Shown: positions 11,217-27,354 of the stretch, one piece after another | How positions within the stretch are numbered: position 1 is the first letter of the stretch | Layout of the letters: every line of letters begins with the position of its first letter | Origin: Bacteriovoracaceae bacterium | GTDB taxonomy: Bacteria; Bdellovibrionota; Bacteriovoracia; Bacteriovoracales; Bacteriovoracaceae | Length of the DNA: 27,354 bases | Assembly: GCA_041586955.1 (NCBI GenBank) | Contig: JBFGZE010000040.1 | Span: 1 to 27,354, forward strand | Direction: 5' to 3' | The notes under the pieces: generated by a model | Told to the model about the DNA's origin: nothing | The model's input: the letters and a program-made list of their open reading frames with translations, nothing else | The model's database searches: none | Program-made: the position numbers and the translations under genes

Positions 11217-12094
11217 GTAATTTGAAATTAAAAATTAATAGACAGGAAGAAAGTCTTAGTATCGATAATGAACTTGACCGCATCCTCGGACTTGAAAAGG
11301 AAGCGCCTAGTGACGTTGCAGATGGGCCATCTGAAAAAAAGGTTCGGCCAAATCATGGAAAACTAAAAAAAGTAGAACCTATCACTAAACTGAGTAAACA
11401 GTCTAAGAAAAAAGGCTCCCGTAAGGTTAATAAATATTTTTATAAAGTTTCTAATCATCATGAATTATTTAAAATTGGATCATCTTTTTACCATGATTAT
11501 TTAGAGGGAGTAAAATCATTTGCCATTACCTCGACCGGGTATCAAATGTCTCAGCAGACAAGTATTTTGGGTCTCGCCAGCTTTTTTGATCATAAAGAGC
11601 ATATCAAAATTGGAATTGTTTCCAATAATTTAGTTCAAGGTTCATTTAAAGAAATTATAGAGCTTAGTGAGAAGGAAAAAGTTCTCATTCATGGAGATCT
11701 TGCTGTCGATGTCCATAATTTTTATGACCATTTTCATTTTATTAATCTTAGAGATTTATTGAAAATCTCCAGTGATGGAGAGAGAGAGGAATATGACGAA
11801 GTCTTTGATTCCTTTGCAGACCAATTTGATATTGTTTTTTGGGATGTTCCCGATTTGGAAGAAATACAAAGAGAATCAGAGAAATATTTTCCCATGATTA
11901 TGAAGTTTGAAAGCTTATCGATAATAGTGTCGAAAAATGTTTCAAGTAGCAAGCATTTGGATGGAATTCGTAGTTTCTTCTTAGGTTACGGAATAAATTT
12001 AAAAGGTCTACTCTTGGAGACGCAAGAGGAAGTGAATGTGAAAGATGAGAAGGGGAAAGTTAAAAAAAGAAGTTGGTGGAGGATATTTGGATGA
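11213..12094 (+). CDS. Degenerate CpsD/CapB-like protein, paralogue of upstream gene
   Basis: NHHELFKIGSSF..DY..GVKSFAITST vs NHVELFKVGNSY..DF..GLKSFAFSS; FDIVFWDVP vs YDIILWDMP; LKGLLL vs LKGILF; AGGAGG RBS, overlapping start/stop. Confidence 0.65.
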   Translation: MSNLKLKINRQEESLSIDNELDRILGLEKEAPSDVADGPSEKKVRPNHGKLKKVEPITKLSKQSKKKGSRKVNKYFYKVSNHHELFKIGSSFYHDYLEGVKSFAITSTGYQMSQQTSILGLASFFDHKEHIKIGIVSNNLVQGSFKEIIELSEKEKVLIHGDLAVDVHNFYDHFHFINLRDLLKISSDGEREEYDEVFDSFADQFDIVFWDVPDLEEIQRESEKYFPMIMKFESLSIIVSKNVSSSKHLDGIRSFFLGYGINLKGLLLETQEEVNVKDEKGKVKKRSWWRIFG

Positions 12095-13590
12095 AAAAGC
12101 TAAATATTGTTTTTGATGAAATAACGATAATCAGTTTCCCTTTCCTTGGAAAACTTTTAAAGCGCTATTATATTCTTAGTCTTGCAGTTGTATTTTCTGT
12201 TCTCACATTCTTTTATTATTTTTATACTGCTCAAAATACAATTCATTCATTAGGAAAAGGTTTTAAAAATGTCCACGAGGAAGGTTCCTCACCGACTTCG
12301 GCCCTCAGTGCTGCAATTGGTGAAAAACCAACTTTTCTTTCTGAGCAGGAAGTTTTAGCGATTGTTAATGGAGTTGACTTTCGTTATAAGTTAGCATCTG
12401 TCCTCTATGAACACCCAGAGTTTCATAAGCTTAACTTTAATGGTATTGAGGCCAAGGGGCATAAATTAATAGGGGATTTTATTGGTCATTGTTCCAATGA
12501 TAAAAAATGTATTGTTTTAACACTTTCTCAGGCAATCAATGGGTTTGTGATTGTGACTCAGGATAAGAATGTTGAAAATCATTTTTCCACTGTCGTTCGC
12601 ACAAGAGATGAATTAACAACGAGTGTGATATTGGAATCTATGGAAAAGGTTTTAATTGATGTTCGTTTGGCCATGATTCGTTATAATATTGACCAACAAA
12701 TCGCGATGACGACGAGTTTAATTAAAGGTAAAAATAAAGAAATCAAAGACCTGAATTTGCTCTCGACTCGGGCTAATGTTAATAAGCTAAGAGAAGAGTT
12801 AAAATCGATTGATCGGGAAATTGCAGTTTATTCCCATAATTATTATTCTCAATTAGAGCAATTAAAAAATGCAAAGAGTATCTATGATGAGACAAAGCAG
12901 ACAGTTAATAGAAAAATAAGCTCTACAGTTCTAAAAGCAAGGAAACGTTCTGAACAATTGGCCGAAACAATTGCTTCACTTGAAGGTGACATACAAAGTC
13001 TCGAGGGGACGGGGAGAGCAGTTCGTGGCACTAATAAAGCAGTCTTAGCTTCCCTGAAGAAGAAACTGAAAGATTCGAGAAAAGAGTATAAAGAATATGC
13101 CAAGTATGATAAATCTCAAGGTCATTTTGATAACTTTCAGGATGGCAAAAACAAATCATATAATATGTCAGAATTTGATTATAAGGTTCTTCAGAAAAGC
13201 TTTAAAGAAACAAAGAAAACATTTGAAAATCTTACTAAAAAGAAAGAGGGACTCGTTAAAGAGTTAACTTCCCTTGGTCAAATACTAGAAGAAAATAAAT
13301 CGACTCTTGGTTATATGGAAGTTCTTCAGTCTAAATTGGTTCAGCTTAAGCTCGCCCAATCGACGATTGTTTCGGATATTGTTTTCGACAAATTTAACTT
13401 TGGGAAGCGAGCTTATAAAAAAGTTAATTTGACCCGAACTATTCTGTTCTTCTTTGCGGTTACTTTTTTTGGCCTTATCCTCGTATGCGCTATTCGTTAT
13501 CTTTTCGATGATAAAATCTATGATGTACGTGAATTACAAGAAAACTTCAAAGACCTAAAAATCATTGGTAATACACCAGATTTTAATTAA
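12091..13590 (+). CDS. Polysaccharide co-polymerase / chain-length determinant (Wzc/GumC-like) without fused kinase
   Basis: Two TM segments flanking a long coiled-coil; C-terminal YLFDDKIYDVRELQ..F.DL.IIGNTP matches the Wzc/CapA juxtamembrane motif. GGAGGA at 12078-12083 and ATGA overlap favour start 12091. Confidence 0.8.
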   Translation: MKKLNIVFDEITIISFPFLGKLLKRYYILSLAVVFSVLTFFYYFYTAQNTIHSLGKGFKNVHEEGSSPTSALSAAIGEKPTFLSEQEVLAIVNGVDFRYKLASVLYEHPEFHKLNFNGIEAKGHKLIGDFIGHCSNDKKCIVLTLSQAINGFVIVTQDKNVENHFSTVVRTRDELTTSVILESMEKVLIDVRLAMIRYNIDQQIAMTTSLIKGKNKEIKDLNLLSTRANVNKLREELKSIDREIAVYSHNYYSQLEQLKNAKSIYDETKQTVNRKISSTVLKARKRSEQLAETIASLEGDIQSLEGTGRAVRGTNKAVLASLKKKLKDSRKEYKEYAKYDKSQGHFDNFQDGKNKSYNMSEFDYKVLQKSFKETKKTFENLTKKKEGLVKELTSLGQILEENKSTLGYMEVLQSKLVQLKLAQSTIVSDIVFDKFNFGKRAYKKVNLTRTILFFFAVTFFGLILVCAIRYLFDDKIYDVRELQENFKDLKIIGNTPDFN

Positions 13591-13949: not shown

Positions 13950-14495
13950 ATGAAAAAAGTCTTTATTTTTATAATAAGTTGGGTTTTATGGTCTACGCCT
14001 GTCTTGGCAAACAAGGCCAAGGACACGGAAGTTCCTTCTTTGAGCGAGATTGTCTTGCCTTCCGAAGTAAAAGGTCTTAGTAAAGCAGCTGGATCTGTTT
14101 TTTATAGTCCCTTTATTAAGGGAAAAGTTCTTGTTCCAGTGAACATTTGGGGTAGTGTTAAAAAATCAGGCCTTCATTTTGTGCCTATGGATACCAGTTT
14201 GATGAAAGGCCTTTCTCTTGCTGGTGGCGTTTTTTCAGAAAGTAAGTTGGATAATGTACGCCTGACTCGAAAAGAGGGGAGCGAGACTAAAAATTATTAT
14301 ATTGATTTCACTTCTTCATCTAAGGATATTGAGGCGCAAAACTTAAAGTTAAGGTCCGGGGATATTATTTTTGTCGATCGCGATTATTTTCGTGAAAATC
14401 GTGCCTATTATACATCTTTGATTGGTGTTTTTATCAGTATGCTTTCCGGTATCCTTATTTACCGTCAAGTTAAAAGGAATCAAAAAACTCCTTAA
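13950..14495 (+). CDS. SLBB-domain polysaccharide export (Wza/OPX-like) short protein
   Basis: Signal peptide; VNIWGSVKKSGLH...LMKGLSLAGG...NVRLTR...LRSGDIIFV SLBB pattern; C-terminal hydrophobic helix. Confidence 0.8.
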   Translation: MKKVFIFIISWVLWSTPVLANKAKDTEVPSLSEIVLPSEVKGLSKAAGSVFYSPFIKGKVLVPVNIWGSVKKSGLHFVPMDTSLMKGLSLAGGVFSESKLDNVRLTRKEGSETKNYYIDFTSSSKDIEAQNLKLRSGDIIFVDRDYFRENRAYYTSLIGVFISMLSGILIYRQVKRNQKTP

Positions 14496-15609
14496 ATGAT
14501 TCACCTGCTTTCTTCCAGCTAAATTGCTCGAAACATGCCTTTCGACTATTGGCATATTCCTTTCTCTGGTCAATTGTGAGAATTGGAACTTGTTTTATTT
14601 GGTAACTTTTTTGATCGGTATATAAATAAATTCCGGGGAGGCCCTTTAGGATTTCTGACGCCCCAACGTCCTTTTCTGTCGTACTAATATGCATACCGCT
14701 TGATGCCGCCTCAATTAAAACTAGGCCAAAGGGTTCGTACTGGGTTGGAAAAACAAAATGGTCACAGAGATTATAAAATTTGGGCAATTCTTTAGTGAAG
14801 TTTATTTCGGCGACGGTAATTTCCTCTGGCCATGTCCATTTACTGAAACTTTCAGGTTTGCCAATGATAATAATTTGGGGACTCTTTTCTTTGGCAAGGC
14901 GGTCTAAAACCACTCCCAGTCCTTTTCGCTCATAAGCACCCACAAAAAGATGAATTGGCCGCGAAGGATCAATTTTCTGCATTTGTGGATAGCGATCTTT
15001 TAATTGTTCAAAAAGAGTGATGCGATCAATATCGAGTACCGAGAACCTTTCAGTGTTCACTCCTGAATAAATGGTTTTGAGATTACTTTTAGGGATAGAG
15101 AAAGTTTCTTGCATATACTCTGATACGAACTTCGCCAGGCAGCTGAATTTCACTCCAGGCCTAGTGAAAACCTTTTTTTCCATATAGAGAAAATACCCAA
15201 ATAATACTTTTTTATAAAAGTGTACCCAGGCACTCATTTTTTTTTGAAAGAAAAAAGGTGCCCATTGATGGTGAACGAATTGAATATTAATAATGTCGGC
15301 AGATGGTGCCGCAATTCCAATCGATATTCGTTTAAAACCCTTTTGGAGGAAGATGTTTTGATAAATTAGGCAAAAGGCATGATAAAAAACTACTTTGAGT
15401 AGAAAGGGATAGAGGTTTGGAAAAGGAACCCTTATCCATTTTACCTTACCTTTAAGCTCAGGAAATAGTTTGTCGGGATGGTCGCATGTGTAGGCGATAA
15501 TTTTTACTGCATCGATTTCGCTTGAGGGGATCTTTTTAATCGTTTCAATCATGGCATGGCTATGGCCAATTTCTAAAAAAAAATCGTGAACAAATATTGC
15601 TAATTTCAT
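14470..15609 (-). CDS. Glycosyltransferase family 4 (GT-B)
   Basis: IYSGVNTERF, FVGAYERKG, FVFPTQYEPFGLVLIEAASSG (EX7E). Confidence 0.92.
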   Translation of the reverse strand: MKLAIFVHDFFLEIGHSHAMIETIKKIPSSEIDAVKIIAYTCDHPDKLFPELKGKVKWIRVPFPNLYPFLLKVVFYHAFCLIYQNIFLQKGFKRISIGIAAPSADIINIQFVHHQWAPFFFQKKMSAWVHFYKKVLFGYFLYMEKKVFTRPGVKFSCLAKFVSEYMQETFSIPKSNLKTIYSGVNTERFSVLDIDRITLFEQLKDRYPQMQKIDPSRPIHLFVGAYERKGLGVVLDRLAKEKSPQIIIIGKPESFSKWTWPEEITVAEINFTKELPKFYNLCDHFVFPTQYEPFGLVLIEAASSGMHISTTEKDVGASEILKGLPGIYLYTDQKSYQIKQVPILTIDQRKEYANSRKACFEQFSWKKAGESFKEFFDSF

Positions 15610-15726
15610 AATGATCTTGTCGTACTATTTTTGAGTAGTCATTACCCGATCAAAAAGATTCGGAAGAAAACACCAGTATTAAGAAAAGTTAATTTTATGA
15701 CGACAAGAATTAAGAATAAGAGGTTT

Positions 15727-16968
15727 ATGGATAACTTAATAAATAATAATCTTTTCCATGTTTTACTTTTGATGAGCTTTTGCTTGTCTTTGGTACTATA
15801 CATCATATTGTATTTTTCTGGACGAGCGGATATTCGACTTCTTAGAAAGTTAATATATATTCCGGCGCGTAAGTCCAATAGTGGCGCCATTCAACTGGGT
15901 GGTGCACCCTATGCTCTTACTATTTTCATAATTTTGGCCTGTGTTATCATCGGTAATGAAGAAATAATCTCCATGCGACCCTTTGAGTTATCACTTCTTA
16001 AAAAATGGGTTTTCGCTGCCGCGATCATTTTTGTCTATGGATATCTCGATGATAAATATGAATTAAGACCTATCGTGAAGTTAATCGGACAGGTTATTGC
16101 GGTCACATTTTTTGGAATATTCCAAAGTCAATTATTGATGCCGGAGTTTGCTTCTGTCGCATTTCTTGTTTGTTGTTTTTGGGGCCTAGGTGCCGTTAAT
16201 GGAACAAATTTACTTGATGGCCTCGACACGATGACGATAAAGCTTTCAGCGATAAGCTTTTCTTCATTAATTATAATGGGCCATATTTTTAATTACCCAT
16301 TTATAATGGAATTATCAGTGTTATTTTTTATTCCTCTTGTTTCTTTTTATCTTTTTAATATGGAGCCTGCCAAAATTCATTTGGGCGAAATAGGTGGGAG
16401 TTTTATTGGTTTTGTTATTCTTCTTCAATGTTCTCTATTATTCGGTCATTTACACCAAACCGAGTCGGCCATTTTCTCAGCAGGCATTAGCTTAGTACCA
16501 CTTACTTTACCAATGTCAGAGCTAGCGGTCAGTTTTTTACGCCGTCTGGTGAATCGAAAATCACCTTTCAAGGGGGATAAGTTACATTCCCATCATATTC
16601 TAAAAAATTATTACCATTTAAGGGCCGCGCAAGCGGCCACATATTTATCTATTGCTTACGCTCTTATAATGGCGGTTACTTTAATTTTGGGTCATTTTGT
16701 TCACCCTTTTATTGCATTGATATGCCAATTTTCATTGCATTTATGTGCTTATATTATTTGTTGTGGGCGTTATTGGATGTCAGATGATTCAATCCAACTT
16801 AATCCAAAGTCATTGTTTGAGTATTTACGAAAAAAAGATGTCCTAATCATTGAGTCGAAGGCCATTGATGATTTTAAAATAACTATCTTGGCCGAAGGAG
16901 AAGAGCAAGATATTGAGATGGATAAAGATGATTCATCTATTAATGATGATAAGGAATCTGCCGCGTAA
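15727..16968 (+). CDS. WecA/TagO-like polyprenyl-phosphate HexNAc-1-phosphate transferase (MraY family)
   Basis: LGG, GYLDDKYEL, NGTNLLDGLD, FNMEPAKIHLGE.G, RR...SPFKGDKLHSHH; many TM helices. AAGAGG RBS favours ATG 15727 over the TTG at 15631. Confidence 0.88.
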   Translation: MDNLINNNLFHVLLLMSFCLSLVLYIILYFSGRADIRLLRKLIYIPARKSNSGAIQLGGAPYALTIFIILACVIIGNEEIISMRPFELSLLKKWVFAAAIIFVYGYLDDKYELRPIVKLIGQVIAVTFFGIFQSQLLMPEFASVAFLVCCFWGLGAVNGTNLLDGLDTMTIKLSAISFSSLIIMGHIFNYPFIMELSVLFFIPLVSFYLFNMEPAKIHLGEIGGSFIGFVILLQCSLLFGHLHQTESAIFSAGISLVPLTLPMSELAVSFLRRLVNRKSPFKGDKLHSHHILKNYYHLRAAQAATYLSIAYALIMAVTLILGHFVHPFIALICQFSLHLCAYIICCGRYWMSDDSIQLNPKSLFEYLRKKDVLIIESKAIDDFKITILAEGEEQDIEMDKDDSSINDDKESAA

Positions 16969-17009
16969 AACTTTTGTTAAATCTAAAAAGCGTATACAAT
17001 AAACATACT

Positions 17010-18017
17010 ATGCTTGGCCCAAAATCAATTCTTATTACAACACCTGATTACCCTCCTAAAAAAGGCGGACTTTCAACTTATACTTTAAATATTGAAAACA
17101 CTTTAAATGAAATGGGTTATTCCTGTGATCGTCTGGTTTGGAAATCTACAAAAGAGTTATTGAATACAAGATTTGAGAAAAAATATGACCTTATGTTGCA
17201 TATTCATTATATGGCCGGTTTTTTCCTCCAAAAATATGGACATAAACATATAAACTTTCTTCATGGCTCAGAAATTATGTTTACTTCCAAGAACATAGTC
17301 AATCGTCTTTTAAAAAAGATGATGAAAAGGCGAATGTTATCCTATTTAGAAGCATCCTATTTAAATGTTTTTATTTCTCAATTCACACTTCATAACATCG
17401 CTGAGATCGGCTTAAAATTAGACTATGGAAGGGATATAGTGCTTCATAATTGCATTGATCTCTATTCTAAAGAAATGGTTAAAAAGGCTTACCCTCAAGA
17501 TAATTGGAAACTTGTTTGTATCGCTCGAGATGTCCCTCATAAAAACTTAGATGGTGTTTTAGAGTTTGCGCATTGGTTAGGAGAAGTCTCAAAACGCCAA
17601 GTCACAGTTTGGATGAATGCAAAAAGAATTATGAAAAGTACTTGGGTAACTGTTAGAAGTCTTCCTCTTTTAGACGATTCTTCTCGTGATGAATTTTATA
17701 AAAAAGTACACTTTAACCTTTTATTCTCTCTTGATCATAGGGATAAAGGTTTTTATGAAGGTTTCGGGCTAACTCCTCTTGAAGCCGCTCAATGGGGAAC
17801 GCCCTCTTTAGTTTTTAATACTGGCGGTTTACCAGAATCAGTCCACCATGACTTTAATGGCTGGGTCTTTAAAAAGATGGATAAGCAACAAGTTCGCATA
17901 TTTGTTAGTCACCTGCGGCCAGAAATTTATGAAAAATGGTCAAATAATGCGTATCATCACTCTTGGCAATCGCATGGATTGGATCAATATAAAAAATTTT
18001 TAAAAAGGGTTTTATGA
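17010..18017 (+). CDS. Glycosyltransferase family 4
   Basis: TPDYPPKKGGLSTY, HGSE, EGFGLTPLEAAQWG.P, TGGLPESV; ATG 17010 preferred to TTG 16974. Confidence 0.9.
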   Translation: MLGPKSILITTPDYPPKKGGLSTYTLNIENTLNEMGYSCDRLVWKSTKELLNTRFEKKYDLMLHIHYMAGFFLQKYGHKHINFLHGSEIMFTSKNIVNRLLKKMMKRRMLSYLEASYLNVFISQFTLHNIAEIGLKLDYGRDIVLHNCIDLYSKEMVKKAYPQDNWKLVCIARDVPHKNLDGVLEFAHWLGEVSKRQVTVWMNAKRIMKSTWVTVRSLPLLDDSSRDEFYKKVHFNLLFSLDHRDKGFYEGFGLTPLEAAQWGTPSLVFNTGGLPESVHHDFNGWVFKKMDKQQVRIFVSHLRPEIYEKWSNNAYHHSWQSHGLDQYKKFLKRVL

Positions 18018-19174
18018 AGAAAAGAAGGATTCTTGTTCTTAATTCTCCTTATCTTGGAGGTGCTGAGCGAAGTGGAATTGTTCAAGCGGCCTTACTACAG
18101 AAAGAATTTGATATTTTCATTCCTGAGTTGATTCGCGGGGATGGCAAAGAAATAATTAACTTAATTAATAGTGAATTTAAAACCGATGTATGCATCAAAC
18201 GGTTTATTTATCCAAATGCTCTCTTCTCCATTAGTAGAGAGACACCTATTTTTAAAATGATCATCTCAGTTTTTCAAAGTATTTTTCAAATATTTGACCT
18301 CAGTAATGAAATCAATCTTAATCATCAAACGACTATTTGGGTAAATGGGAATAAGGCCGGTTTTCTATTTTTTATTTTGGCCTTGAAAAATAAGTTTAAA
18401 GGGACCTTTTACTGGCACTTTCGAGATTATCCTAGTCAAAGGCCCATTTGGTCTTGTATATGGCGTCTATTGGGCCTAAAGAGGTGCTTTGACCTTGTGC
18501 TCATTGGGAATTCAAAGTCTGTCTCCAAAAGTTTACACCAATTAAAAATTCATAACTCTTCAGTGCAAACCATTTATAACCCCTCTGGCCTGGCCGAAAA
18601 TAAAAAGTTTTCCAAAGGTATCCGCACTATTGGTTTGGCATCAATGTTTGCTCCTTGGAAGGGGATTCACTCTATTCTTTTATGGGTCGGCCTTTATGAA
18701 AAGGAATTACAAGAAATTGGTATTGAGAAAATTAATATTTATGGTGGACAGATCTATCAGACTAGCGGAGGTCATGCTCAATACGATAAGGCGCTCATCG
18801 ACTTAGTTGAAAAATTCAATATCAATATTGTCGAATTCAAAGGCCTTAAAGCACCATCTATAATTTTTGATGAAATTGATCTTTTGATTCATTACTCCCT
18901 TCGCCCGGAGCCATTTGGGCGTATTCTTTTGGAGGCCTTTTCTCGAGGAATACCTACCATCTCAACATCTCTAGGTGGTGCAAACGAATTAGTAGAAAAG
19001 GCCCATGCGCTTAAGGTGATTCCCTACGATTATGCGGGGCTATTTCACACAATTAAAAAACTCACAATTGAATTTCCCTCAACGGCAACTCTTATTTCAG
19101 AGAATGAATTGAAGGCATTTCGTTATTTCGAGGACTTAGCTGAGAAGCAATTGAAAAGGTGTTTTGTTGACTAA
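18014..19174 (+). CDS. Glycosyltransferase family 4
   Basis: LGGAERS, WHFRD, PWKG, PEPFGRILLEAFSRG.P; overlapping start/stop with upstream GT. Confidence 0.9.
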   Translation: MKKRRILVLNSPYLGGAERSGIVQAALLQKEFDIFIPELIRGDGKEIINLINSEFKTDVCIKRFIYPNALFSISRETPIFKMIISVFQSIFQIFDLSNEINLNHQTTIWVNGNKAGFLFFILALKNKFKGTFYWHFRDYPSQRPIWSCIWRLLGLKRCFDLVLIGNSKSVSKSLHQLKIHNSSVQTIYNPSGLAENKKFSKGIRTIGLASMFAPWKGIHSILLWVGLYEKELQEIGIEKINIYGGQIYQTSGGHAQYDKALIDLVEKFNINIVEFKGLKAPSIIFDEIDLLIHYSLRPEPFGRILLEAFSRGIPTISTSLGGANELVEKAHALKVIPYDYAGLFHTIKKLTIEFPSTATLISENELKAFRYFEDLAEKQLKRCFVD

Positions 19175-19522
19175 AAATTGGGGCAATATAGAGAATCGGC
19201 CATCAATCTTATGGCCCTTTCGCTATTCCCTATAAATGATGAATTCTTCTTCATGATTAAATATTATGACAAGTTATTTCGAGGGATTAGGCGTACAAAA
19301 GAATGGTTAAGAAGCACCTTGGCCCAATTTTGACAAAACTTTATCGATTTGAGGCAGTAAGGCCTTAAAATTAACTTATCATAGTAAGGTGATGGAAGAG
19401 TGATTGGTCGAGGGTGAGGGTCTGGATGGACCTCGCTTTGCAGAGCGAATGGGTTAGGCGAATTTATCCTATACAAAAATATTTTTTAAAAAAATACTTT
19501 TTGGTATAAAATGAGGATTATG

Positions 19523-19714
19523 ATGAAAGAAAAAAAGACCGTTGAAACAGAAAATAAAAAAGTGTCTAAAAAGAAAAGACCTTATCAAAAACCAACTATT
19601 GTGACAGAAGAATTAATGTCTTTTGGGGCGCTATGTAATGGTACCTCGACGGGAGGCCGTAAGGCCGCTGCAGGAGCACCAACTTTTTGCAACCCTAGCC
19701 GTTTGACATCATAA
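19523..19714 (+). CDS. RiPP precursor peptide (63 aa; alternative starts 19511/19520)
   Basis: Lys-rich leader with KRPYQKPTI (YxxPx[L/I] RRE-binding motif) then Gly/Ala/Ser/Thr-rich core CNGTSTGGRKAAAGAPTFCNPSRLTS; stop abuts kinase ATG; GAGGA at 19513-19517. Confidence 0.85.
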   Translation: MKEKKTVETENKKVSKKKRPYQKPTIVTEELMSFGALCNGTSTGGRKAAAGAPTFCNPSRLTS

Positions 19715-20650
19715 ATGGAATTGTCTTTGGGCCTTCGCAATCCTCAATTGTTTGAGCAGAAAAAGACCTTAATTAAGAAATTAGAAGATATAGACCTATC
19801 CCAATACCCCATCCATGATAAAAAGCAATTATCTCTTTTTGGCCTAGAGCTTAACCTCGTTAATTACCAAGATTCTGATTTTTTTTCAACAATCGAAAAG
19901 TTCTACCCCGCTTCATGGTGGGGTGAGTTCAATACCAATGGAACTCAGGTTCACCTTCTTAGTTGTGAAGATCTAGGAATGAGCTCTGATGAATTTGAGA
20001 ACGAATTGATGCCAGATTGCATCGATTGGCAAGATGAAATGGGCCATATTGGTATCCAACGGGACTTTATAGGACTTAATAAAAATGATAATCAAATTAT
20101 TATCATAACGGGGAAAGGAGCTGGAGATGGCTGGTTTAATTTTTTAAGATGGTATTTGCCACGGCAGTTATTAAAAAATAACCAAGTGATCTTGCATTCA
20201 AGTGCAGTTGTGAAAAATGGACAGGCCTATGTTTTCCTTGGGCATTCAGGAGCGGGTAAGTCCACTGTCACCGAATTGTCTCCTGATGGACATGTTCTTG
20301 GGGACGACATGAATTTTGTTGAAGTCTCGGACGGTCAATTATATGCTCGCTCCGGAGGGATTGGAGGACGATTTTTTCCACATGCCGATTGCTCTGAAAG
20401 TTTCCCTGTAAAGGCCTTTTTTTGGCTAAACCAAAGTTCTCAAAATAAAATTTATCCTTTTTCAAAAATTGAAGGTGTTAGGTTGATTCTTGCAAGTATG
20501 ACTAACATCTTCTGGGAAACCCTAGAAGAAAAGGAACGACAATTTGCTTTTGATTTTGCTATTCAAATGAATGAACTTGGGCGAGTCTATAAGTTAGATT
20601 TTGAAAAGAAACCAACTTTTTGGGAGGTCATTGATGACTATTGTTTATAA
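19715..20650 (+). CDS. HPr kinase-like P-loop kinase (PadeK/ScmC-like peptide kinase)
   Basis: ILHSSAVV...VFLGHSGAGKST...LGDDMNFV: His, Walker A and DD motifs of the HPrK C-terminal fold. Confidence 0.8.
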   Translation: MELSLGLRNPQLFEQKKTLIKKLEDIDLSQYPIHDKKQLSLFGLELNLVNYQDSDFFSTIEKFYPASWWGEFNTNGTQVHLLSCEDLGMSSDEFENELMPDCIDWQDEMGHIGIQRDFIGLNKNDNQIIIITGKGAGDGWFNFLRWYLPRQLLKNNQVILHSSAVVKNGQAYVFLGHSGAGKSTVTELSPDGHVLGDDMNFVEVSDGQLYARSGGIGGRFFPHADCSESFPVKAFFWLNQSSQNKIYPFSKIEGVRLILASMTNIFWETLEEKERQFAFDFAIQMNELGRVYKLDFEKKPTFWEVIDDYCL

Positions 20651-20915
20651 AAGATCGAAAGATCTTCCCTGGCAAGAAATTCACAATGAGATTATTATTC
20701 TCAATGCCTCTGAAGGGGAAGCTGTCCAATTAAATGAAACGGCTTCATTTTTATGGGATTGTTTAAAAAGCCCGCTCGGTATCGAGGAGTTAGTATTAAA
20801 TACTTGCGATCACTTTGAAGTCCCACCAGATCAGGCAAAAGAAGATATAAATATTTTTCTTAAAGACCTCCAGAGTAAAAACCTTATTCAGGCAGTCGAT
20901 GGCCAATCAAGATGA
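20634..20915 (+). CDS. PqqD-family RiPP recognition element (RRE) 1
   Basis: LNETASFLWDCL...IEELV...DHFEV...AKEDI..FL..L...NLI; GGAGG RBS at 20623-20627 gives ATG 20634. Confidence 0.9.
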   Translation: MTIVYKRSKDLPWQEIHNEIIILNASEGEAVQLNETASFLWDCLKSPLGIEELVLNTCDHFEVPPDQAKEDINIFLKDLQSKNLIQAVDGQSR

Positions 20916-21354
20916 TTTTCTCTTTATTCCTCATCGCGGGCAGAGTATGTTCCCCCTCATTCGCGATGGTGATCAGATTATCGTTGAAAAAATAAAGCGT
21001 AGTCCAATTCCTGGTGATATTATTCTCTATCGCGACATTGACACTAAAGAGTGGGTCGCTCATCGTTATTTAAAAAAAAATACCTTAAAGGGCGACTTTT
21101 CCCTAGTCTTTGACCAAGTTAATGAAGCAGCATTTATGGGTTTTATACGAGGGATTAGACGTCAAGAAAACATTTATCTTTGGAGTCAGATGGGCCATCC
21201 TCTAAAGGGATTTTTTCTTCGCGCCACTGTTTACCGAACGAAAAACAGGCCACGTTGGCTGAGGTGGAGCATTGTTTTTATTTTGCTTATTTTTTCCAAG
21301 GCCATTTTAATTTTGAGCTCAACCAATACCAATCGTATTGAAAAGCTTCAATAA
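20899..21354 (+). CDS. S24/S26-family peptidase (Ser-His type)
   Basis: GQSMFPLIRDGD, GDIILY, VAHR, KGD motifs; C-terminal hydrophobic segment, no N-terminal anchor. Confidence 0.85.
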   Translation: MANQDDFLFIPHRGQSMFPLIRDGDQIIVEKIKRSPIPGDIILYRDIDTKEWVAHRYLKKNTLKGDFSLVFDQVNEAAFMGFIRGIRRQENIYLWSQMGHPLKGFFLRATVYRTKNRPRWLRWSIVFILLIFSKAILILSSTNTNRIEKLQ

Positions 21355-22219
21355 TTCCATCTTTAAGCATGTGCTTTGTAAGCCAATAACTCACTCCTCG
21401 CTGTCCTGTTTGCCAGATTAAGGCAGGCGCTGGTGAGATATTCCATTTTTCATCTCCGCCGGGAGGTGGCCAAATACCTAAATGTTGATCAATATGATGA
21501 TGAATGAACCAAAGCGTTGATGTTATGCCTTTTTTTAATTTTAATTGATTGGCCTTTTCCCAGATAAGTGGCCAATTAAATGTTCCAACTTTAAGTAGTA
21601 GATAAATATCGATTAACCAGAACAATTTTAAAAAATTATGTTGGTTTGCATAATGGCCAATTAGGTGCAGTAATAAATGAGAATCATCTAAAGTTTTGAG
21701 ATGCTTAAAAGGATCTAATAAATTCGTTTTCCAGTCAAAGTTATTTTCTTCCTGATAAAAGCATTTATGGTGAAGTTCAATCACTAATTCTTTTTCGCCA
21801 ATTAATTTAGTAAACTCCCATTTATGGTGATTACCTTGCCAATCCCCCTTTTCCCTTGGGCAATAACCCAATTTAATGATCTCTTTTTCAAATTGTGCCC
21901 ATTTGTTTAATGGTAAAAGAAGATCTAGGTCTGAGGTGTGGCGAGAGCCAAGGTCTTGATAAAACCTGGGTATTAAGGCGTGGCCCTTGAGCACGATTAT
22001 AGAGTTCGATAAATCATTTGGTAATTGGTCGAGGTTGTTGAGCTCTTCTTGATAGGAATGGTTTAAGTCCCATTGCTGTAACCACTTTTTTTTACCACGG
22101 GGATTAGGGCAACCTTGACAGTATTTATAGAGAAAGCCTTCGATTAAGTGTTCTTGATAGAGACAGTCAGGCTTTGCGCCCTCAGGTGGATCCAGTAGAA
22201 ATGAAATAATAGATTTCAT
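21287..22219 (-). CDS. Nucleotidyltransferase family protein (NTP_transf_5-like)
   Basis: IVLKGHAL...Y...GSRHTSDLDLL, IELHH, LLHLIGH, L.WLIDI motifs. Confidence 0.88.
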   Translation of the reverse strand: MKSIISFLLDPPEGAKPDCLYQEHLIEGFLYKYCQGCPNPRGKKKWLQQWDLNHSYQEELNNLDQLPNDLSNSIIVLKGHALIPRFYQDLGSRHTSDLDLLLPLNKWAQFEKEIIKLGYCPREKGDWQGNHHKWEFTKLIGEKELVIELHHKCFYQEENNFDWKTNLLDPFKHLKTLDDSHLLLHLIGHYANQHNFLKLFWLIDIYLLLKVGTFNWPLIWEKANQLKLKKGITSTLWFIHHHIDQHLGIWPPPGGDEKWNISPAPALIWQTGQRGVSYWLTKHMLKDGIIEAFQYDWYWLSSKLKWPWKK

Positions 22220-22290
22220 GGGTTTATTATAACGATGTTTAGATAAAATGGATGCTTTTTTTTAAGTTTAAACTAAGGTAGTATTGCTTT
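22220..22290. promoter_or_regulatory. Divergent promoters, each -10 hexamer 6 nt before an ATG
   Basis: - strand TATAAT (22231-22226) AAACCC ATG; + strand TAGTAT (22279-22284) TGCTTT ATG. Confidence 0.55.
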
Positions 22291-22584
22291 ATGGAAAAGG
22301 TCAAAATAAAATCTCGCATTGCCTTCAAAAAGATTGCAAAAGAAACCTATGTTTTTGATTATTATGGTCAAGGAAAAGGCCATAAATTAAATGAGGTCGC
22401 TTCGTTTATATGGCATCTTCTGGATGGATCCAATACACTTGAATCAATTAGTCAGAAAATGACCCAAGAGTTTTCGGTAGATCGTATGACGGCCCAAAGT
22501 GATCTTGAATGCTTCATCAATGAACTTAAGTCTTTAGAACTCCTTTCGGGTAATGATAATGACCAGCAAAGACAATCGGCCTAA
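22291..22584 (+). CDS. PqqD-family RiPP recognition element (RRE) 2
   Basis: LNEVASFIWHLLDGSNTLESI...EFSVD...AQSDL..FI.EL...ELL. Confidence 0.92.
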   Translation: MEKVKIKSRIAFKKIAKETYVFDYYGQGKGHKLNEVASFIWHLLDGSNTLESISQKMTQEFSVDRMTAQSDLECFINELKSLELLSGNDNDQQRQSA

Positions 22585-23611
22585 AGGCGATCTTTTAGAT
22601 CAGGCCATGCGCCAATCCTACCAAGAATGTAATCCTCTTTTTACTACCATCGAAATTACCCTCGATTGCAATTTAAAATGTAAGCATTGCTATAATTACG
22701 ATCGTGAGGAGCAAAATGTACCTAATGGCCAGGCCATGTCTAGAGAAGAGATTCTGGAGACAATAGCTGCAGTGGCCGCAGAAGGGGCATTATTTATTTG
22801 CTTAACCGGTGGGGAGGCGCTCCTCCATCCACATTTAGAAGACTTCATTCAAGAGATTATTAAGCAACATTCTGTTGCCCGATTAAAAAGTAATGGCCTT
22901 TTGCTTAATGAGAAAAAAATTGAAAGGTTGGCGCGCTTAGGAGTCGATCTAATTGATATTAGTCTCTATGGTGCGAGCGAGGAAAGTTATCGTAATTTTA
23001 CTGGGTCAGGGTCTGCATTCACTCGCGTCATGAATGCTATTGATGCTTGTATCGCTCAAAAAATGAATATCTCACTTAGCATAATTCTTAATCGCTCAAA
23101 TATTCATGAATTGGATGCTATGGTGAATATGGCCCGCGAAAAAGGAGTTTCTTTTCAATTCTCAGATGAGATAACCTCCCGATATGATGGCGATACAGCT
23201 CCGCAGCAGCTCGCTCTTTCGGAAGCCGATTATGAGCAATTGCTAAAAGGTCCTTTTAGTGAATATTTTAACCACTATAATGATGATAATACCTTTCAGT
23301 GCAATTGTGCCCGTAGCGTATGCGGTATTAGTGCTTTTGGCGAGGTCTATCCTTGTATTGGTGCACCGCTCAAGTCTGGAAATCTAAGAAATCAAAGTTT
23401 TGCTCAAATTTGGAAAGAGTCTAAGGTTCTAAACGACATCCGCAATATTCAAAAAGAAGACTTTAAAGAGTGTAATAAATGCGATTTTAAAAATTATTGT
23501 AACCGCAGCTCAGGTGGTATTTATATTAATACTGGGGAGTATAAAGGTTGTGATGAGGATTCCCTGATGAAGGCCAGGGTTCGATCTAAGGTTGCCGCTG
23601 AAGATTCTTAA
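22553..23611 (+). CDS. Radical SAM/SPASM domain peptide maturase (start may be 22559)
   Basis: CNLKCKHC, LTGGEALL, SNG, ISLYG; SPASM region QCNC...GEVYPC...GNLR..SF..IW...CNKCDFKNYC...GC. Confidence 0.93.
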   Translation: MIMTSKDNRPKGDLLDQAMRQSYQECNPLFTTIEITLDCNLKCKHCYNYDREEQNVPNGQAMSREEILETIAAVAAEGALFICLTGGEALLHPHLEDFIQEIIKQHSVARLKSNGLLLNEKKIERLARLGVDLIDISLYGASEESYRNFTGSGSAFTRVMNAIDACIAQKMNISLSIILNRSNIHELDAMVNMAREKGVSFQFSDEITSRYDGDTAPQQLALSEADYEQLLKGPFSEYFNHYNDDNTFQCNCARSVCGISAFGEVYPCIGAPLKSGNLRNQSFAQIWKESKVLNDIRNIQKEDFKECNKCDFKNYCNRSSGGIYINTGEYKGCDEDSLMKARVRSKVAAEDS

Positions 23612-24414
23612 AGAATTAAACGTCCCTTTTTTCTCAGAAAAATCAAACTGCTTTGAAAAAGAAAGTACCCGCTACCTGCATAGGCCAGTCCTAATAATGC
23701 TAGATGAACAAATTCCTGCTGAGGAAAGGGAATTGCTGTTGTTTGGGCAAGAATTTTTCGAACATTGGTTAACAGGATACCATGGGGAATAATTGTCGTC
23801 ATTAGGACTGCTAATTTAGAGGGTAAAATTTCAACCGGAAAAAAGGCCCCTGATAGCGCGCCCAATAAAGCATTTGTTTGAAAAATAAGAGTTTGGCCGC
23901 GACCGCTAATATTGATTAAAGAAAGAGCTAACAAGGCAAACCCGTAAAAGCTAATAAGCGCCAGGGAGGTTAAAAAGAGGGCATATAAAAAAGACAAAAG
24001 TGAAAAGCTAAGTCCTAATCCCATGGAAACGAGAACAATAAAACCCATCCTTAAAAAAGGTCGCCAAATATCGGCAATGATCTGAGAAATAAAATAGCGA
24101 TTCCATGAAATAGCGCGAGAAATAAATATCTCATGGATATGTTCTCTAAAAATAGTCTTATAAGAAGTAATCAGACCGGTAAGAACTTGAATTGGAATAC
24201 CTAAAAATATTTCTCCAACCACCATAAAGCTAAAGAAGTCAGTTTGGTAAAAGTCAAGATGCTCTTGAATTGATGGGCCAAAGGCCTTTGAGGCATACCA
24301 ATATATAATAAGACCCAATGATGAAGAGAATAACTCTAGGAGTAGAGTCATCCAGCTACTAAAACTACCGCGCCAATTTTCTTTAATTAAATAAATAATT
24401 AATTGGGATATCAT
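23608..24414 (-). CDS. ABC-2 type transporter permease
   Basis: About six hydrophobic segments, LSGAFFPVEILP motif; start overlaps ATPase stop. Confidence 0.85.
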   Translation of the reverse strand: MISQLIIYLIKENWRGSFSSWMTLLLELFSSSLGLIIYWYASKAFGPSIQEHLDFYQTDFFSFMVVGEIFLGIPIQVLTGLITSYKTIFREHIHEIFISRAISWNRYFISQIIADIWRPFLRMGFIVLVSMGLGLSFSLLSFLYALFLTSLALISFYGFALLALSLINISGRGQTLIFQTNALLGALSGAFFPVEILPSKLAVLMTTIIPHGILLTNVRKILAQTTAIPFPQQEFVHLALLGLAYAGSGYFLFQSSLIFLRKKGRLIL

Positions 24415-25040
24415 AATAGTGTCTCCAAATTGATTTCGTCATAATCATTGTTGCCACTATGTCGATGATCAGTCAGGACTAAAGTCTTTTCCTGAAAGAA
24501 AGTATTCATAAGGAGGGACAATTCTAAAGCGAGTTCTTGTGAGAGGTTTTGAAATGGTTCATCCCAAAAATAAAAATGAGCATTATGGGAAAGAGCTATT
24601 GCAATCTTAATTAATTGCTTCATCCCGTCGGAGCATTGGTTGACCTGGACTGGTAAACTTTTGTTGAGCGTTTCTATCATGACAGGATAATTAACAAGTA
24701 ATGTTTTGATCTCATCTATCGTCAAACATTGATGAGGTGTTAAATGTTGAAATAGAGTGAAGTTCTCTATCCCAGTTAAATGTGGAAAGAGAGCGTTACC
24801 GCAAGAGGGGAGCCAATTGATTTTGGGATTTACTATACCGCGATAGTGGACACTTCCTTTCGGTGGTAAAAGAATACTTGCCATCAATTTTAATAACGTT
24901 GTTTTACCGATACCATTCTTTCCTTTAATGAGATTCATTTTGTGGAAAGGAATTTTTAGATTGAATTGACTAAAGATAGGACGATTATGATAATGAAAGG
25001 TAAGGTCTTGGCAAATGATGGCATTTTCTTGTTCAGCCAT
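24411..25040 (-). CDS. ABC transporter ATP-binding protein
   Basis: GKNGIGKTT Walker A, CSDGMKQ signature variant, FWDEP Walker B, LTDH switch. Confidence 0.9.
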   Translation of the reverse strand: MAEQENAIICQDLTFHYHNRPIFSQFNLKIPFHKMNLIKGKNGIGKTTLLKLMASILLPPKGSVHYRGIVNPKINWLPSCGNALFPHLTGIENFTLFQHLTPHQCLTIDEIKTLLVNYPVMIETLNKSLPVQVNQCSDGMKQLIKIAIALSHNAHFYFWDEPFQNLSQELALELSLLMNTFFQEKTLVLTDHRHSGNNDYDEINLETLL

Positions 25041-25386
25041 TTGTCTCTACCCTATGCTTTAAATTGAGCAAATGAATGGCCTTAACAAATTGCAACCATT
25101 TTTCAAAATTCTCTTTCTCGGTAAAATTAAAGCGACATCCAATATTGTTTCCTTTTTGCCATACTTTCTTTGCGTTCAGTTTATATTTATTTTTTCCAAG
25201 TAAAGTAATTTCAAACTCAAAGGCATCGGGGAACTGGGAATCGTTAGGTGTTTCAAAACAAATACCTCCAAGTCCTATATCAATAGTCTTAATATTGTGT
25301 GAATCCTTCATCTCAGGAATAAAAAGCTCATTGGAGATGTGCTTTAATGAGTAGCGAGGAAATATACGTTGTCCTTCTTTGTTCAT
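25033..25386 (-). CDS. Stand-alone PilZ-domain protein
   Basis: QRIFPRY (RxxxR), DIGLGGICF (D/NxSxxG variant), AKKVW and IGCRF strands. Confidence 0.8.
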   Translation of the reverse strand: MNKEGQRIFPRYSLKHISNELFIPEMKDSHNIKTIDIGLGGICFETPNDSQFPDAFEFEITLLGKNKYKLNAKKVWQKGNNIGCRFNFTEKENFEKWLQFVKAIHLLNLKHRVETNG

Positions 25387-25811
25387 AATTTTTCTTCTTT
25401 TTGCTGGTAAAGAGTATTGAATATAGTGTGAAATTGCTGGTGCTTTAGTTTTATCCTTTCTAGGAAATGAATTTGCTCTCCTGGGTTAAGTGTATTGATG
25501 TTAAAAATCACGACCTTTTGAATATAATCTGTCCACTCTATAATAAGGGCCACCTCTTGCTGTTCTGAAGCGAAATAAAGGGCCTTTTCAAGCTTGGGGT
25601 CAAATATTTCGGCCTTTGTTCCTAAAACTCTAATAAGAGAAGGATAATCATACATGGTAGAAGGACCATTTTCGGTATGTGTGGGGTTATCTGACCAAAG
25701 AATCTGTAAATTTGATTTTAAGTTTTGGCCAAAAATCCAAGCTGAAGGCAGGGTTTGACCCAGCTCTGTAAAAAATTTCCGGAGAATTTCGGGTCTTAAA
25801 GTTGCAATCAA
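25383..25811 (-). CDS. Hypothetical protein
   Basis: 142-aa ORF, TTG start with AAGGAG about 10 nt upstream, stop overlaps PilZ start; no recognised motif. Confidence 0.65.
   Translation of the reverse strand: MIATLRPEILRKFFTELGQTLPSAWIFGQNLKSNLQILWSDNPTHTENGPSTMYDYPSLIRVLGTKAEIFDPKLEKALYFASEQQEVALIIEWTDYIQKVVIFNINTLNPGEQIHFLERIKLKHQQFHTIFNTLYQQKEEKL

Positions 25812-26322: not shown

Positions 26323-27354
<1,032 letters not shown>

Follow-up and report, generated by a model that had tools for sequence, protein, structure and literature searches.

Gene content of the cassette

The stretch of DNA analysed here, hereafter the window, comprises the 27,354 nucleotides (nt) of contig JBFGZE010000040.1 from a Bacteriovoracaceae bacterium (assembly GCA_041586955.1). 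It contains a cassette that very probably serves peptide maturation, acting on a 63-residue precursor encoded at its left end and containing a radical S-adenosylmethionine (rSAM) enzyme with a SPASM domain. The open reading frames (ORFs) of the window were listed and then scanned with Pfam and NCBIfam profiles (27 ORFs scanned). The ORF list and family scans located all eight components that an earlier, sequence-only reading had proposed: a precursor gene, a kinase-like protein, two proteins containing a recognition element (RRE) for peptides made on the ribosome and modified after translation (RiPPs), a peptidase, a nucleotidyltransferase, the rSAM enzyme and an ATP-binding cassette (ABC) exporter. 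The components lie side by side, as that reading had it, but they do not form a single operon, since the minus strand carries the nucleotidyltransferase gene and the two ABC genes.

Related loci were collected by a one-genome-per-species scan with an alignment of 20 rSAM sequences. The scan gave 131 stretches, the best 80 of which were examined as 79 loci (numbered from L001). Components were counted up to 6 kb from the rSAM gene, with the window's proteins as queries in iterated searches of every ORF of these loci, and a well-flanked subset was defined as the 42 loci with at least 4 kb upstream and at least 3 kb downstream.

Precursor peptide

The precursor gene (19523..19714, plus strand) belongs to a conserved family. 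Its frame is open from 19511, with the likely start at 19523 and GAGGA upstream at 19513-19517. The leader contains the motif Y21-x-x-P24-x-I26, and the core contains C38-N-G, G44-G-R-K47, C56 and the final Ser63. Direct searches gave three small relatives (E 8e-18 to 1e-10). In an alignment of 41 precursors, C38, G40, K47 and C56 are invariant, while Y21, P24, N39, G44, G45, R46 and L61 are kept in at least 90%; this conservation rules out a chance ORF. The core is better conserved than the leader, which is unusual among antibiotic RiPPs.

A profile of the 41 precursors, run against 1.84 billion representative proteins, matched 93 at E <= 0.001 and 44 at E <= 1e-10, nearly all of them 47-105 residues long and aligned through their final residue. 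Among 90 small matches, the final residue is Ser in 57 and Thr in 30; the last 36 residues include exactly two Cys in 85, and C-N/D-G is present in 80. Spacing, counted for 123 of 127 distinct precursor sequences, is also restricted: 17 residues separate the leader Tyr from the first Cys in 60 of 123 and 19 do so in 28, with the second Cys followed by 7 residues up to the C-terminus in 77 and by 5 in 41. At relaxed thresholds, weak candidate precursors (E 0.004-10) were found beside the kinase gene in 16 further loci; all have an aromatic-x-x-P leader and two Cys, and those from Polyangia have a C-terminal Ser. Two loci (L035:11047-11524 and L046:1300-1786) contain two tandem precursor genes each, with poly-glycine inserted between the leader and C-N-G; precursor representatives with up to about 12 Gly were seen.

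The Y-x-x-P-x-I spacing is that of lasso peptide leaders, in which the Tyr stands at -17. The likeness to precursors of kinase-bearing lasso clusters, which had been pointed out from the sequence alone, is borne out by this leader motif and the C-terminal Ser (comparison drawn from the accessible part of PMC8498205). A penultimate Thr is conserved in lasso leaders, according to the accessible part of PMC10368454. The matching position of the present family is occupied by Thr, Ser or Ala, so the likeness of the leaders is partial only. In the precursor alignment, no conserved Asp or Glu follows any plausible cleavage site, and a macrolactam acceptor at core position 7-9 is not present.

Kinase-like protein

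The start codon of the kinase-like gene (19715..20650, plus strand) immediately follows the precursor stop codon. Profiles and an AlphaFold (AF2) model assign its P-loop product to the Pfam ScmC family, with a fold like those of HPrK and phosphoenolpyruvate carboxykinase (PEPCK). The highest family scores are for ScmC (TIGR04249, E 5e-11), HprK_rel_A (E 2e-6) and PEPCK_ATP (E 1.5e-5). The ScmC equivalog model gives 42.4 bits against a cut-off of 125, with relatives at 31-41 bits, and the models HprK_rel_A (TIGR04352) and HprK_rel_B (TIGR04355) give 26.9 and 15.4 bits against a cut-off of 200. A profile search with the kinase alignment matched 114 proteins. Most of these, including the window's own (P0218), are annotated as PF27840, the family named 'ScmC' in Pfam 38.1, an assignment taken from precomputed annotation. 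Four of the 114 are genuine ScmC proteins (139-166 bits against the 125 of TIGR04249), three of which (P0316, P0318 and P0320) carry an archaeal-type signal peptidase I domain as a fusion. Relatives from Bacillales were matched by the same search with E 1e-29 to 1e-37.

In 42 kinase sequences, H161, S178, G181, K182 and T184 are invariant (the P-loop lysine, K182, in 42 of 42), and in the window's protein the P-loop is followed by the pair D197-D198. The AF2 model has a predicted local distance difference test (pLDDT) score of 93.8, and its best fold match in the PDB is ATP-PEPCK (E about 1e-8, TM 0.45-0.50), a fold that is common to HPr kinase. A sequence search of the PDB with the kinase returned P-loop and PEPCK fragments only. 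Fusions of kinase and peptidase genes occur in L053, L020 and P0228.

Peptidase and nucleotidyltransferase

The presumed leader peptidase (20899..21354, plus strand) is a signal-peptidase-like protease of S26B type (Ser/His, archaeal/ER-like) with a C-terminal hydrophobic helix, which is also present in most members of the family. It scores 25.3 bits with Peptidase_S24 (cut-off 23.3) and 32 bits (E 1e-7) with sigpep_I_arch (TIGR02228, cut-off 51.85). Every one of 36 peptidases compared has G14, S16, M17, H55, R56, G65 and D66, which account for the G-x-S-M-x-P serine box, the H-R box and the G-D box of the S26 family. We take this Ser/His pattern, and the boxes so named, to be those of the ER/archaeal-type S26 enzymes.

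The nucleotidyltransferase-fold enzyme (21287..22219, minus strand) belongs to NTP_transf_5 (PF14907; 97.3 bits, cut-off 31.2). Across 33 sequences, K78, G79, R93, D97, D99, H150, H194 and D204 do not vary and E148 hardly does. Neither this enzyme nor the peptidase had a match in PDB sequence searches at E up to 1, and a full-text search found no relevant paper on NTP_transf_5/PF14907. The genes of the two enzymes converge and overlap at their 3' ends, the overlap measuring 68 nt in the window (21287-21354), 83 in L001 and 23 in L002; such overlaps occur elsewhere too. Peptidase and NTP_transf_5 are encoded by one fused gene in L042. Since the peptidase is fused to the kinase in L053 and L020, and to NTP_transf_5 in L042, the number of loci in which it was counted is an underestimate. 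Judged by their catalytic motifs, which are intact, the peptidase, nucleotidyltransferase and kinase appear to be active enzymes.

RRE proteins

Both RRE proteins are members of the PqqD family, and they are 26% identical to each other. RRE1 (20601..20915, plus strand; PqqD 58.3 bits) is a paralogue resembling the lasso B1 protein, and RRE2 (22291..22584, plus strand; PqqD 58.6 bits) is encoded next to the rSAM enzyme, a place directly 5' of the rSAM gene that an RRE2-type gene holds in most relatives. The curated lasso model lasso_PqqD_Bac (NF033536) gives 40 bits for RRE1 and 29 bits for RRE2 against a cut-off of 80, while the ScmD model (TIGR04248) gives 28.4 and 30.3 bits, respectively, against 100. 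The second RRE reported by the sequence-only reading does exist in the window. It is, however, a minority feature: the position of RRE1, between the kinase and peptidase genes, is occupied only in a sub-clade of five related loci (L002, L006, L009, L011 and L054).

Radical SAM enzyme and exporter

The radical SAM/SPASM peptide maturase (22553..23611, plus strand) scores above the cut-offs of both Radical_SAM (88.2 bits) and SPASM (38.2 bits). Its rSAM motif is C39-x3-C43-x2-C46, and the C-terminal region contributes C250, C252, C268, C307, C310 and C316; all these Cys are invariant in 20 sequences. The likewise invariant Ser320 occupies the place of the last Cys in the canonical SPASM pattern CX2CX5CX3C. 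The features of an rSAM/SPASM maturase are thus all present: the CxxxCxxC core, the Cys-rich SPASM region, and an RRE and small peptide gene nearby.

The closest solved relative is SkfB, both by sequence (E 4.5e-14) and by fold (E 8.5e-15), with SuiB, BlsE, PqqE, CteB, anSME and EpeE scoring close behind. Curated models are far from reached: the enzyme gives 91 bits with ScmE and 68.6 bits with ScmF (TIGR04250/04251, cut-off 400) and 79 with AlbA (cut-off 850). The NCBIfam scan of the window and of seven relatives places the rSAM enzyme outside every curated characterized family, as the claim of novelty made from the sequence required, and none of the proteins scanned from these eight loci attained any curated NCBIfam cut-off. 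In a set of 5.8 billion proteins, 332 relatives of the enzyme were found, the best being 47-50% identical.

The presumed exporter is encoded by a gene for an ABC-2-type permease (23608..24414, minus strand; 25.7 bits, under the Pfam cut-off of 31.6) and one for an ABC transporter ATPase (24411..25040, minus strand; identified by family scan). The permease accompanies the cassette in three different positions. Processing of a double-glycine leader was considered and rejected, as the ABC protein has no peptidase domain.

Conservation across genomes

The neighbourhood, whose conservation among rSAM homologues the sequence-only reading had put forward as a decisive check, is conserved across the 79 loci. 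The RRE was found in 61 of them (35 of the 42 well-flanked loci), the kinase in 58 (33), the peptidase in 41 (25), the nucleotidyltransferase in 41 (26), the precursor in 40 (29), the ABC ATPase in 25 (18) and the ABC permease in 22 (16). Kinase, RRE, peptidase, nucleotidyltransferase and precursor occur jointly in 27 of the 79, and the most conserved trio consists of kinase, RRE and rSAM enzyme (55 of the 79 rSAM loci). Two gene orders recur. In the first, the precursor is followed by the kinase, in some cases RRE1, the peptidase, the reversed nucleotidyltransferase, an RRE and the rSAM enzyme; in the second, an RRE, peptidase and rSAM enzyme face precursor, kinase, nucleotidyltransferase and ABC genes. 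An arrangement seen again in dozens of genomes is far from anything that chance would produce.

In a quick maximum-likelihood tree of 84 rSAM enzymes, the window falls in a clade of 42 rows (41 Bdellovibrionota and the window itself) with 99% support by the SH-like approximate likelihood ratio test (SH-aLRT). The kinase together with the peptidase or nucleotidyltransferase is present in 35 of these 42 rows. Gene order and rSAM tree together place the window among Halobacteriovoraceae/Bacteriovoracaceae-like genomes, though its best rSAM identity there is only 48%. The earlier remark that no characterized product was known from a predatory bacterium has matters the wrong way round, as the family is concentrated in Bdellovibrionota. 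Its environmental range was taken from the protein sets and the species-genome collection. The kinase-linked form also occurs in Myxococcota, Acidobacteriota, Fibrobacterota and Binatia, while the partners are missing, and the context is another, in a Cyanobacteriota/Sericytochromatia clade (6 rows) and in most Planctomycetota rows. The conserved core and lineage-wide inheritance make a conserved physiological factor a likelier product than an antibiotic specific to one strain.

Relationship to known systems

The closest known system is SynChlorMet (SCM; NCBIfam TIGR04248-TIGR04251), a cassette defined bioinformatically which the sequence-only reading had mentioned as related; the lasso clusters are less close. 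An ScmC-family kinase-like protein occurs together with a PqqD-family protein and an rSAM/SPASM enzyme both in the window's cassette and in SynChlorMet. The kinase of the window belongs to PF27840 'ScmC' and has ScmC as its best NCBIfam match, and the domain fused to genuine ScmC proteins is an archaeal-type signal peptidase I, the type of the window's peptidase. The ScmC membership and these fusions indicate that the cassette is a distant sister of SynChlorMet to which NTP_transf_5 has been added. The two cassettes differ in that all the window's proteins are far under the SCM cut-offs, in the number of rSAM enzymes (one in the window, two, ScmE and ScmF, in SynChlorMet) and in the window's additional NTP_transf_5, ABC-2 exporter and precursor family of its own. 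We know of no characterized SynChlorMet product, and a full-text search for the name 'SynChlorMet' found no paper. Taken together, the comparison suggests that the cassette encodes an RRE-dependent rSAM RiPP system of ScmC type, a variant of a known plan.

A second group for comparison is the maturation of sactipeptides and ranthipeptides (SkfB, CteB, AlbA), which likewise employs an rSAM enzyme with a SPASM or twitch domain, an RRE partner and a Cys-containing core, and which includes SkfB, the solved structure nearest to the window's enzyme by sequence and fold. The window differs in having its RRE as a separate protein, only two Cys, scores that do not reach the curated models, and a kinase, nucleotidyltransferase and S26 peptidase. 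The HPr-rel-A system and its counterpart B (HprK-related kinases A and B) share an HPrK-related P-loop protein beside a PqqD-family protein, but with 27 and 15 bits against a cut-off of 200 the window's protein is not a member. Lanthipeptide-like kinase chemistry was rejected, as neither a lyase nor a cyclase is present.

Kinase plus nucleotidyltransferase is the accessory set of certain lasso clusters, as the accessible part of PMC8498205 describes. There, the kinase homologue of the paeninodin cluster phosphorylates the C-terminal Ser of the linear precursor, and related clusters in some cases encode the nucleotidyltransferase as a fusion with the B2 protease. For pseudomycoidin, PsmK adds +80 Da and PsmN +162 Da units to the C-terminal Ser, with essential Asp pairs D158/D159 in PsmK and D134/D136 in PsmN (accessible part of PMC6993621). 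With these clusters the window shares the Y-x-x-P-x-I leader, the C-terminal Ser as well as a PqqD/RRE protein. As far as the accessible parts of both papers go, it also shares the P-loop and DD pair of the kinase-like protein and the D-x-D pair of the NTP transferase. Fusion of the nucleotidyltransferase to a leader protease is a further parallel, the partner being B2 in the lasso relatives (same part of PMC8498205) and S26 in a relative of the window (L042). The window, however, lacks a cyclase, a B2 protease and an acidic acceptor, and has an rSAM/SPASM enzyme and an S26B peptidase instead.

The proposal that a lasso tailoring module acts here on a non-lasso peptide thus holds in one part, as this is a non-lasso, RRE-dependent rSAM/SPASM cluster. 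It fails in the other: kinase, RRE and rSAM enzyme form the most conserved trio and the kinase is a member of Pfam ScmC, so it is not an accessory taken over from lasso clusters.

In the full-text literature, subscription journals being outside the search, no description of this architecture or of an ScmC-type product was found. The one paper found that joins rSAM enzymes, RiPPs and HPr kinase phosphorylation mentions the kinase only for lasso clusters, none of the papers listed for HprK with rSAM enzymes and PqqD contains HprK, and nothing relevant was found on RiPPs of Halobacteriovorax or Bacteriovorax. The accessible part of the RRE-Finder paper mentions no kinase, nucleotidyltransferase or signal peptidase, and among papers on RiPPs and S26 or signal peptidases none describes this architecture in its abstract.

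Proposed maturation and alternatives

The mechanism to which we incline, with confidence somewhat above even for its full course, is that of an uncharacterized but conserved ribosomal-peptide cassette built on the ScmC-type plan, with NTP_transf_5 and an ABC-2 exporter added. The RRE protein or proteins would bind the Y-x-x-P-x-I leader and present the precursor to the enzymes. The rSAM/SPASM enzyme would modify the core, most likely by closing one or two intramolecular thioether bridges from the two invariant Cys; that it makes Cys-derived thioethers, for which the two invariant Cys and the nearness to SkfB are indirect evidence, is an assignment that may well prove right but falls a little short of an even chance. 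The ATP-dependent kinase-like protein would phosphorylate a hydroxyl group, in the window's clade most likely the one on the C-terminal Ser, and NTP_transf_5 would decorate the phosphate, by analogy with PsmN of pseudomycoidin. Phosphorylation of the C-terminal Ser with subsequent decoration is a tentative assignment, about as probable as that of the thioethers. The membrane-anchored Ser/His S26B peptidase would cut off the leader in the variable linker before the first Cys, leader removal being the probable function of this enzyme, and the ABC-2 pump may then export the product.

Several observations weigh against this course. The relatives of the rSAM enzyme include thioether synthases, C-C cross-linkers, an epimerase and non-peptide enzymes, and do not discriminate between them; with such mixed chemistries among the matches, the chemistry cannot be read from them. 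The family scores of the kinase are all under the curated Pfam and NCBIfam cut-offs used in the scan, its best solved fold is PEPCK and not HPr kinase, and only 23 of 42 kinases have DD as the acidic pair behind the P-loop, the rest having DE or one Asp. The residues preceding the first Cys (V, T, L, S or A at -1, G or A at -3) make a poor signal-peptidase site. Three well-flanked loci (L013, L037 and L038) contain precursor, kinase, RRE and rSAM genes but no peptidase or nucleotidyltransferase, which implies that these two steps are dispensable. Finally, in an Acidobacteriota/Myxococcota clade with kinase, peptidase and nucleotidyltransferase, three of five candidate precursors end in Ala and two in Thr (E 0.25-10), so that phosphorylation of a C-terminal Ser or Thr cannot be universal.

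Several of these points would be accommodated if the ScmC protein were not a kinase for the C-terminal Ser but an ATP-dependent component integral to the rSAM step or to leader processing. Another residue might then be its target for activation, or it could serve as a scaffold or gate, with NTP_transf_5 acting on a different group. The depth of conservation of the trio (kinase plus RRE in 55 of 79 loci) fits such a role, as does its persistence without peptidase and nucleotidyltransferase, in the three loci just mentioned and in Polyangia (L074-L079). The same trio defines the SynChlorMet cassette, several relatives have the kinase fused to the peptidase, and the Ala termini of the distant candidates point the same way. 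Nevertheless, we consider this main alternative unlikely. The family retains the P-loop Lys and one or more Asp after it, which is what a functional phosphotransferase should show, and 87 of 90 precursor representatives end in Ser or Thr. The only characterized kinase-nucleotidyltransferase pairs of this kind, as presented in the accessible parts of PMC8498205 and PMC6993621, act on the C-terminal Ser.

It is less probable still that the cassette is functionally part of the adjoining surface locus. Its peptide could be phosphorylated and then glycosylated by NTP_transf_5 and the neighbouring enzymes of glycosyltransferase family 4 (GT4), or it could regulate either polysaccharide production controlled by cyclic di-GMP and PilZ or a giant C25 protease. 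GT4 pairs homologous to that at 16974-19174 of the window are found in 17-18 of the 79 loci, in several arrangements, and genes for WecA-like, SLBB and Wzc-like proteins recur. A PilZ gene lies between cassette and glycosyltransferase genes in L020, L024, L026 and L053. Of the 20 loci with a gene for a Peptidase_C25 protein of more than 2000 residues, 16 have it abutting the precursor gene, in either orientation. PsmN possibly makes a glycosyltransferase substrate, according to the accessible part of PMC6993621. Many complete cassettes, however, have no glycosyltransferase gene within 10 kb (for example L004, L005, L035, L041, L052 and L054), the association could be inherited synteny of one lineage, and the ABC pair accompanies the cassette and not the glycosyltransferase genes.

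The cassette is almost certainly not a lasso system. The absence of a lasso cyclase and a B2 protease, as stated from the sequence, was confirmed for the window and for the scanned ORFs of related loci: none of the 27 window ORFs has an Asn_synthase or transglutaminase domain. The 493 unassigned ORFs up to 8 kb from the rSAM genes were clustered, and 26 representatives of recurrent families were scanned; these were C25 peptidases, polysaccharide genes, methyltransferases and unrelated genes, with no cyclase or B2 protease. Asn_synthase was also missing from 79 unassigned ORFs of 430-760 residues from cassette-bearing loci (121 such ORFs in all loci), as was transglutaminase from 47 of 57 small unassigned ORFs near cassettes. 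That a cyclase and a B2 protease are encoded elsewhere in the genome is very remote, in spite of the leader spacing, a Thr two residues before Gly in some relatives, the lasso PqqD chaperone as best NCBIfam match of RRE1 and the lasso-like kinase and nucleotidyltransferase, as the conserved partners are an rSAM enzyme and a non-B2 protease and no Asp or Glu acceptor is conserved.

Implications

RiPP discovery usually concerns variable, strain-specific antibiotics, while a conserved core and a lineage-wide cassette in predatory bacteria form a pattern typical of peptide-derived cofactors or signals. The boldest form of the proposed maturation is a new RiPP class: an rSAM-cross-linked, two-Cys peptide whose C-terminal Ser bears a sugar or nucleotide through a phosphate link, serving as a lineage-wide, surface-tied factor of most Bacteriovoracia-type predators, with its ScmC-type kinase as an obligatory rSAM partner and not an optional tailoring enzyme. 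We think this improbable in its entirety. If it were true, the peptide might prime or anchor a glycan that the adjacent GT4 enzymes build, or it might work with the giant C25 protease at the prey interface.

With its short precursor, single rSAM enzyme, predicted mass shifts and low-GC genes, the cassette would be a tractable model for the long-uncharacterized ScmC/SynChlorMet-type systems. It would allow one to ask if a lasso-type kinase-nucleotidyltransferase pair can act on a non-lasso scaffold, and if leader removal in a RiPP pathway can be the dedicated task of an S26 signal-peptidase-like enzyme.

Neighbouring genes and minor observations

Housekeeping genes had been said to bound the locus on both sides, which is only partly so: the genes directly upstream are GT4 polysaccharide genes, and those downstream encode a PilZ protein, a protein of no known family and 16S rRNA. 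On the upstream side, the GT4 glycosyltransferases are accompanied by a WecA-like transferase and an SLBB protein, with pheST lying further upstream. The PilZ-domain protein (25033..25386, minus strand; 28.5 bits) adjoins the cassette in 10 of the 79 loci, and the 142-residue protein (25383..25811, minus strand; no family match) recurs beside it in five; for both, membership of the system is uncertain. An Rfam scan identified the 5' two-thirds of the 16S rRNA gene (26323-27354), which runs past the end of the window; Rfam and tRNA scans of the window found no other RNA gene.

Scans for promoters, terminators and repeats gave nothing decisive. A weak sigma-70-like promoter match (19485..19512, plus strand; 9 of 12 consensus matches) lies just 5' of the precursor gene, but it is a mere consensus match in a scanned region with 31 promoter-like sites against 21.3 expected; terminator-like sites numbered 11 against 6.8 expected. 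Between 9000 and 14000 of the window, the GC content falls from about 0.42 to 0.32-0.35. The ORFs of this stretch (9855-11216, 11213-12094 and 12073-13590) have no convincing Pfam family, and a relative of its 505-residue ORF is present in six related loci.

A polysaccharide locus with a GT4 pair, a WecA-like transferase, SLBB and Wzc-like proteins and the 505-residue no-family protein is often found beside the cassette, in differing arrangements (window 13950-19174, L001, L003, L008, L010, L012, L020, L024, L026, L044, L045, L053, L057 and others), and many complete cassettes are without such neighbours. A giant gingipain-like Peptidase_C25 protein, absent from the window, is encoded beside the cassette in 20 loci (L001, L004, L005, L007, L008, L010-L013, L016, L024, L026, L030, L037, L038, L048 and L050-L053). 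Its ORFs measure 973-2765 residues, many being cut by the locus end. The gene is co-directional with the precursor gene in 10 loci (gap -66 to 41 nt), divergent in 6 (143-307 nt) and 1.6-3.9 kb away in 4; that the genes stay adjacent whichever way they point hints at a link in function. Among loci with the alternative gene order, several (L033, L035, L039, L041, L044, L047, L055 and L062) have a class I SAM methyltransferase gene as an additional neighbour.

In L014, L015, L025, L059-L061 and L065, from the Cyanobacteriota/Sericytochromatia clade and a metagenome-assembled genome (MAG) of Nitrospirota, the rSAM gene stands without kinase, RRE, peptidase or nucleotidyltransferase. In the first three it follows a gene for a protein of 834-860 residues without Pfam family, which looks like a different, also undescribed, context. 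In three Fibrobacterota-type loci (L019, L040 and L043) the RRE gene lies between two rSAM/SPASM genes, an arrangement like that of SynChlorMet, with BamB/PQQ-like beta-propellers nearby; none of their components attains the SCM cut-offs, and no precursor was found in them, relaxed search included. The cassette of L006, labelled as a Sulfitobacter MAG, is near-identical to that of the Halobacteriovorax MAG L009 (branch lengths 0.029, same gene order), and is likely a mis-binned contig and not a case of gene transfer.

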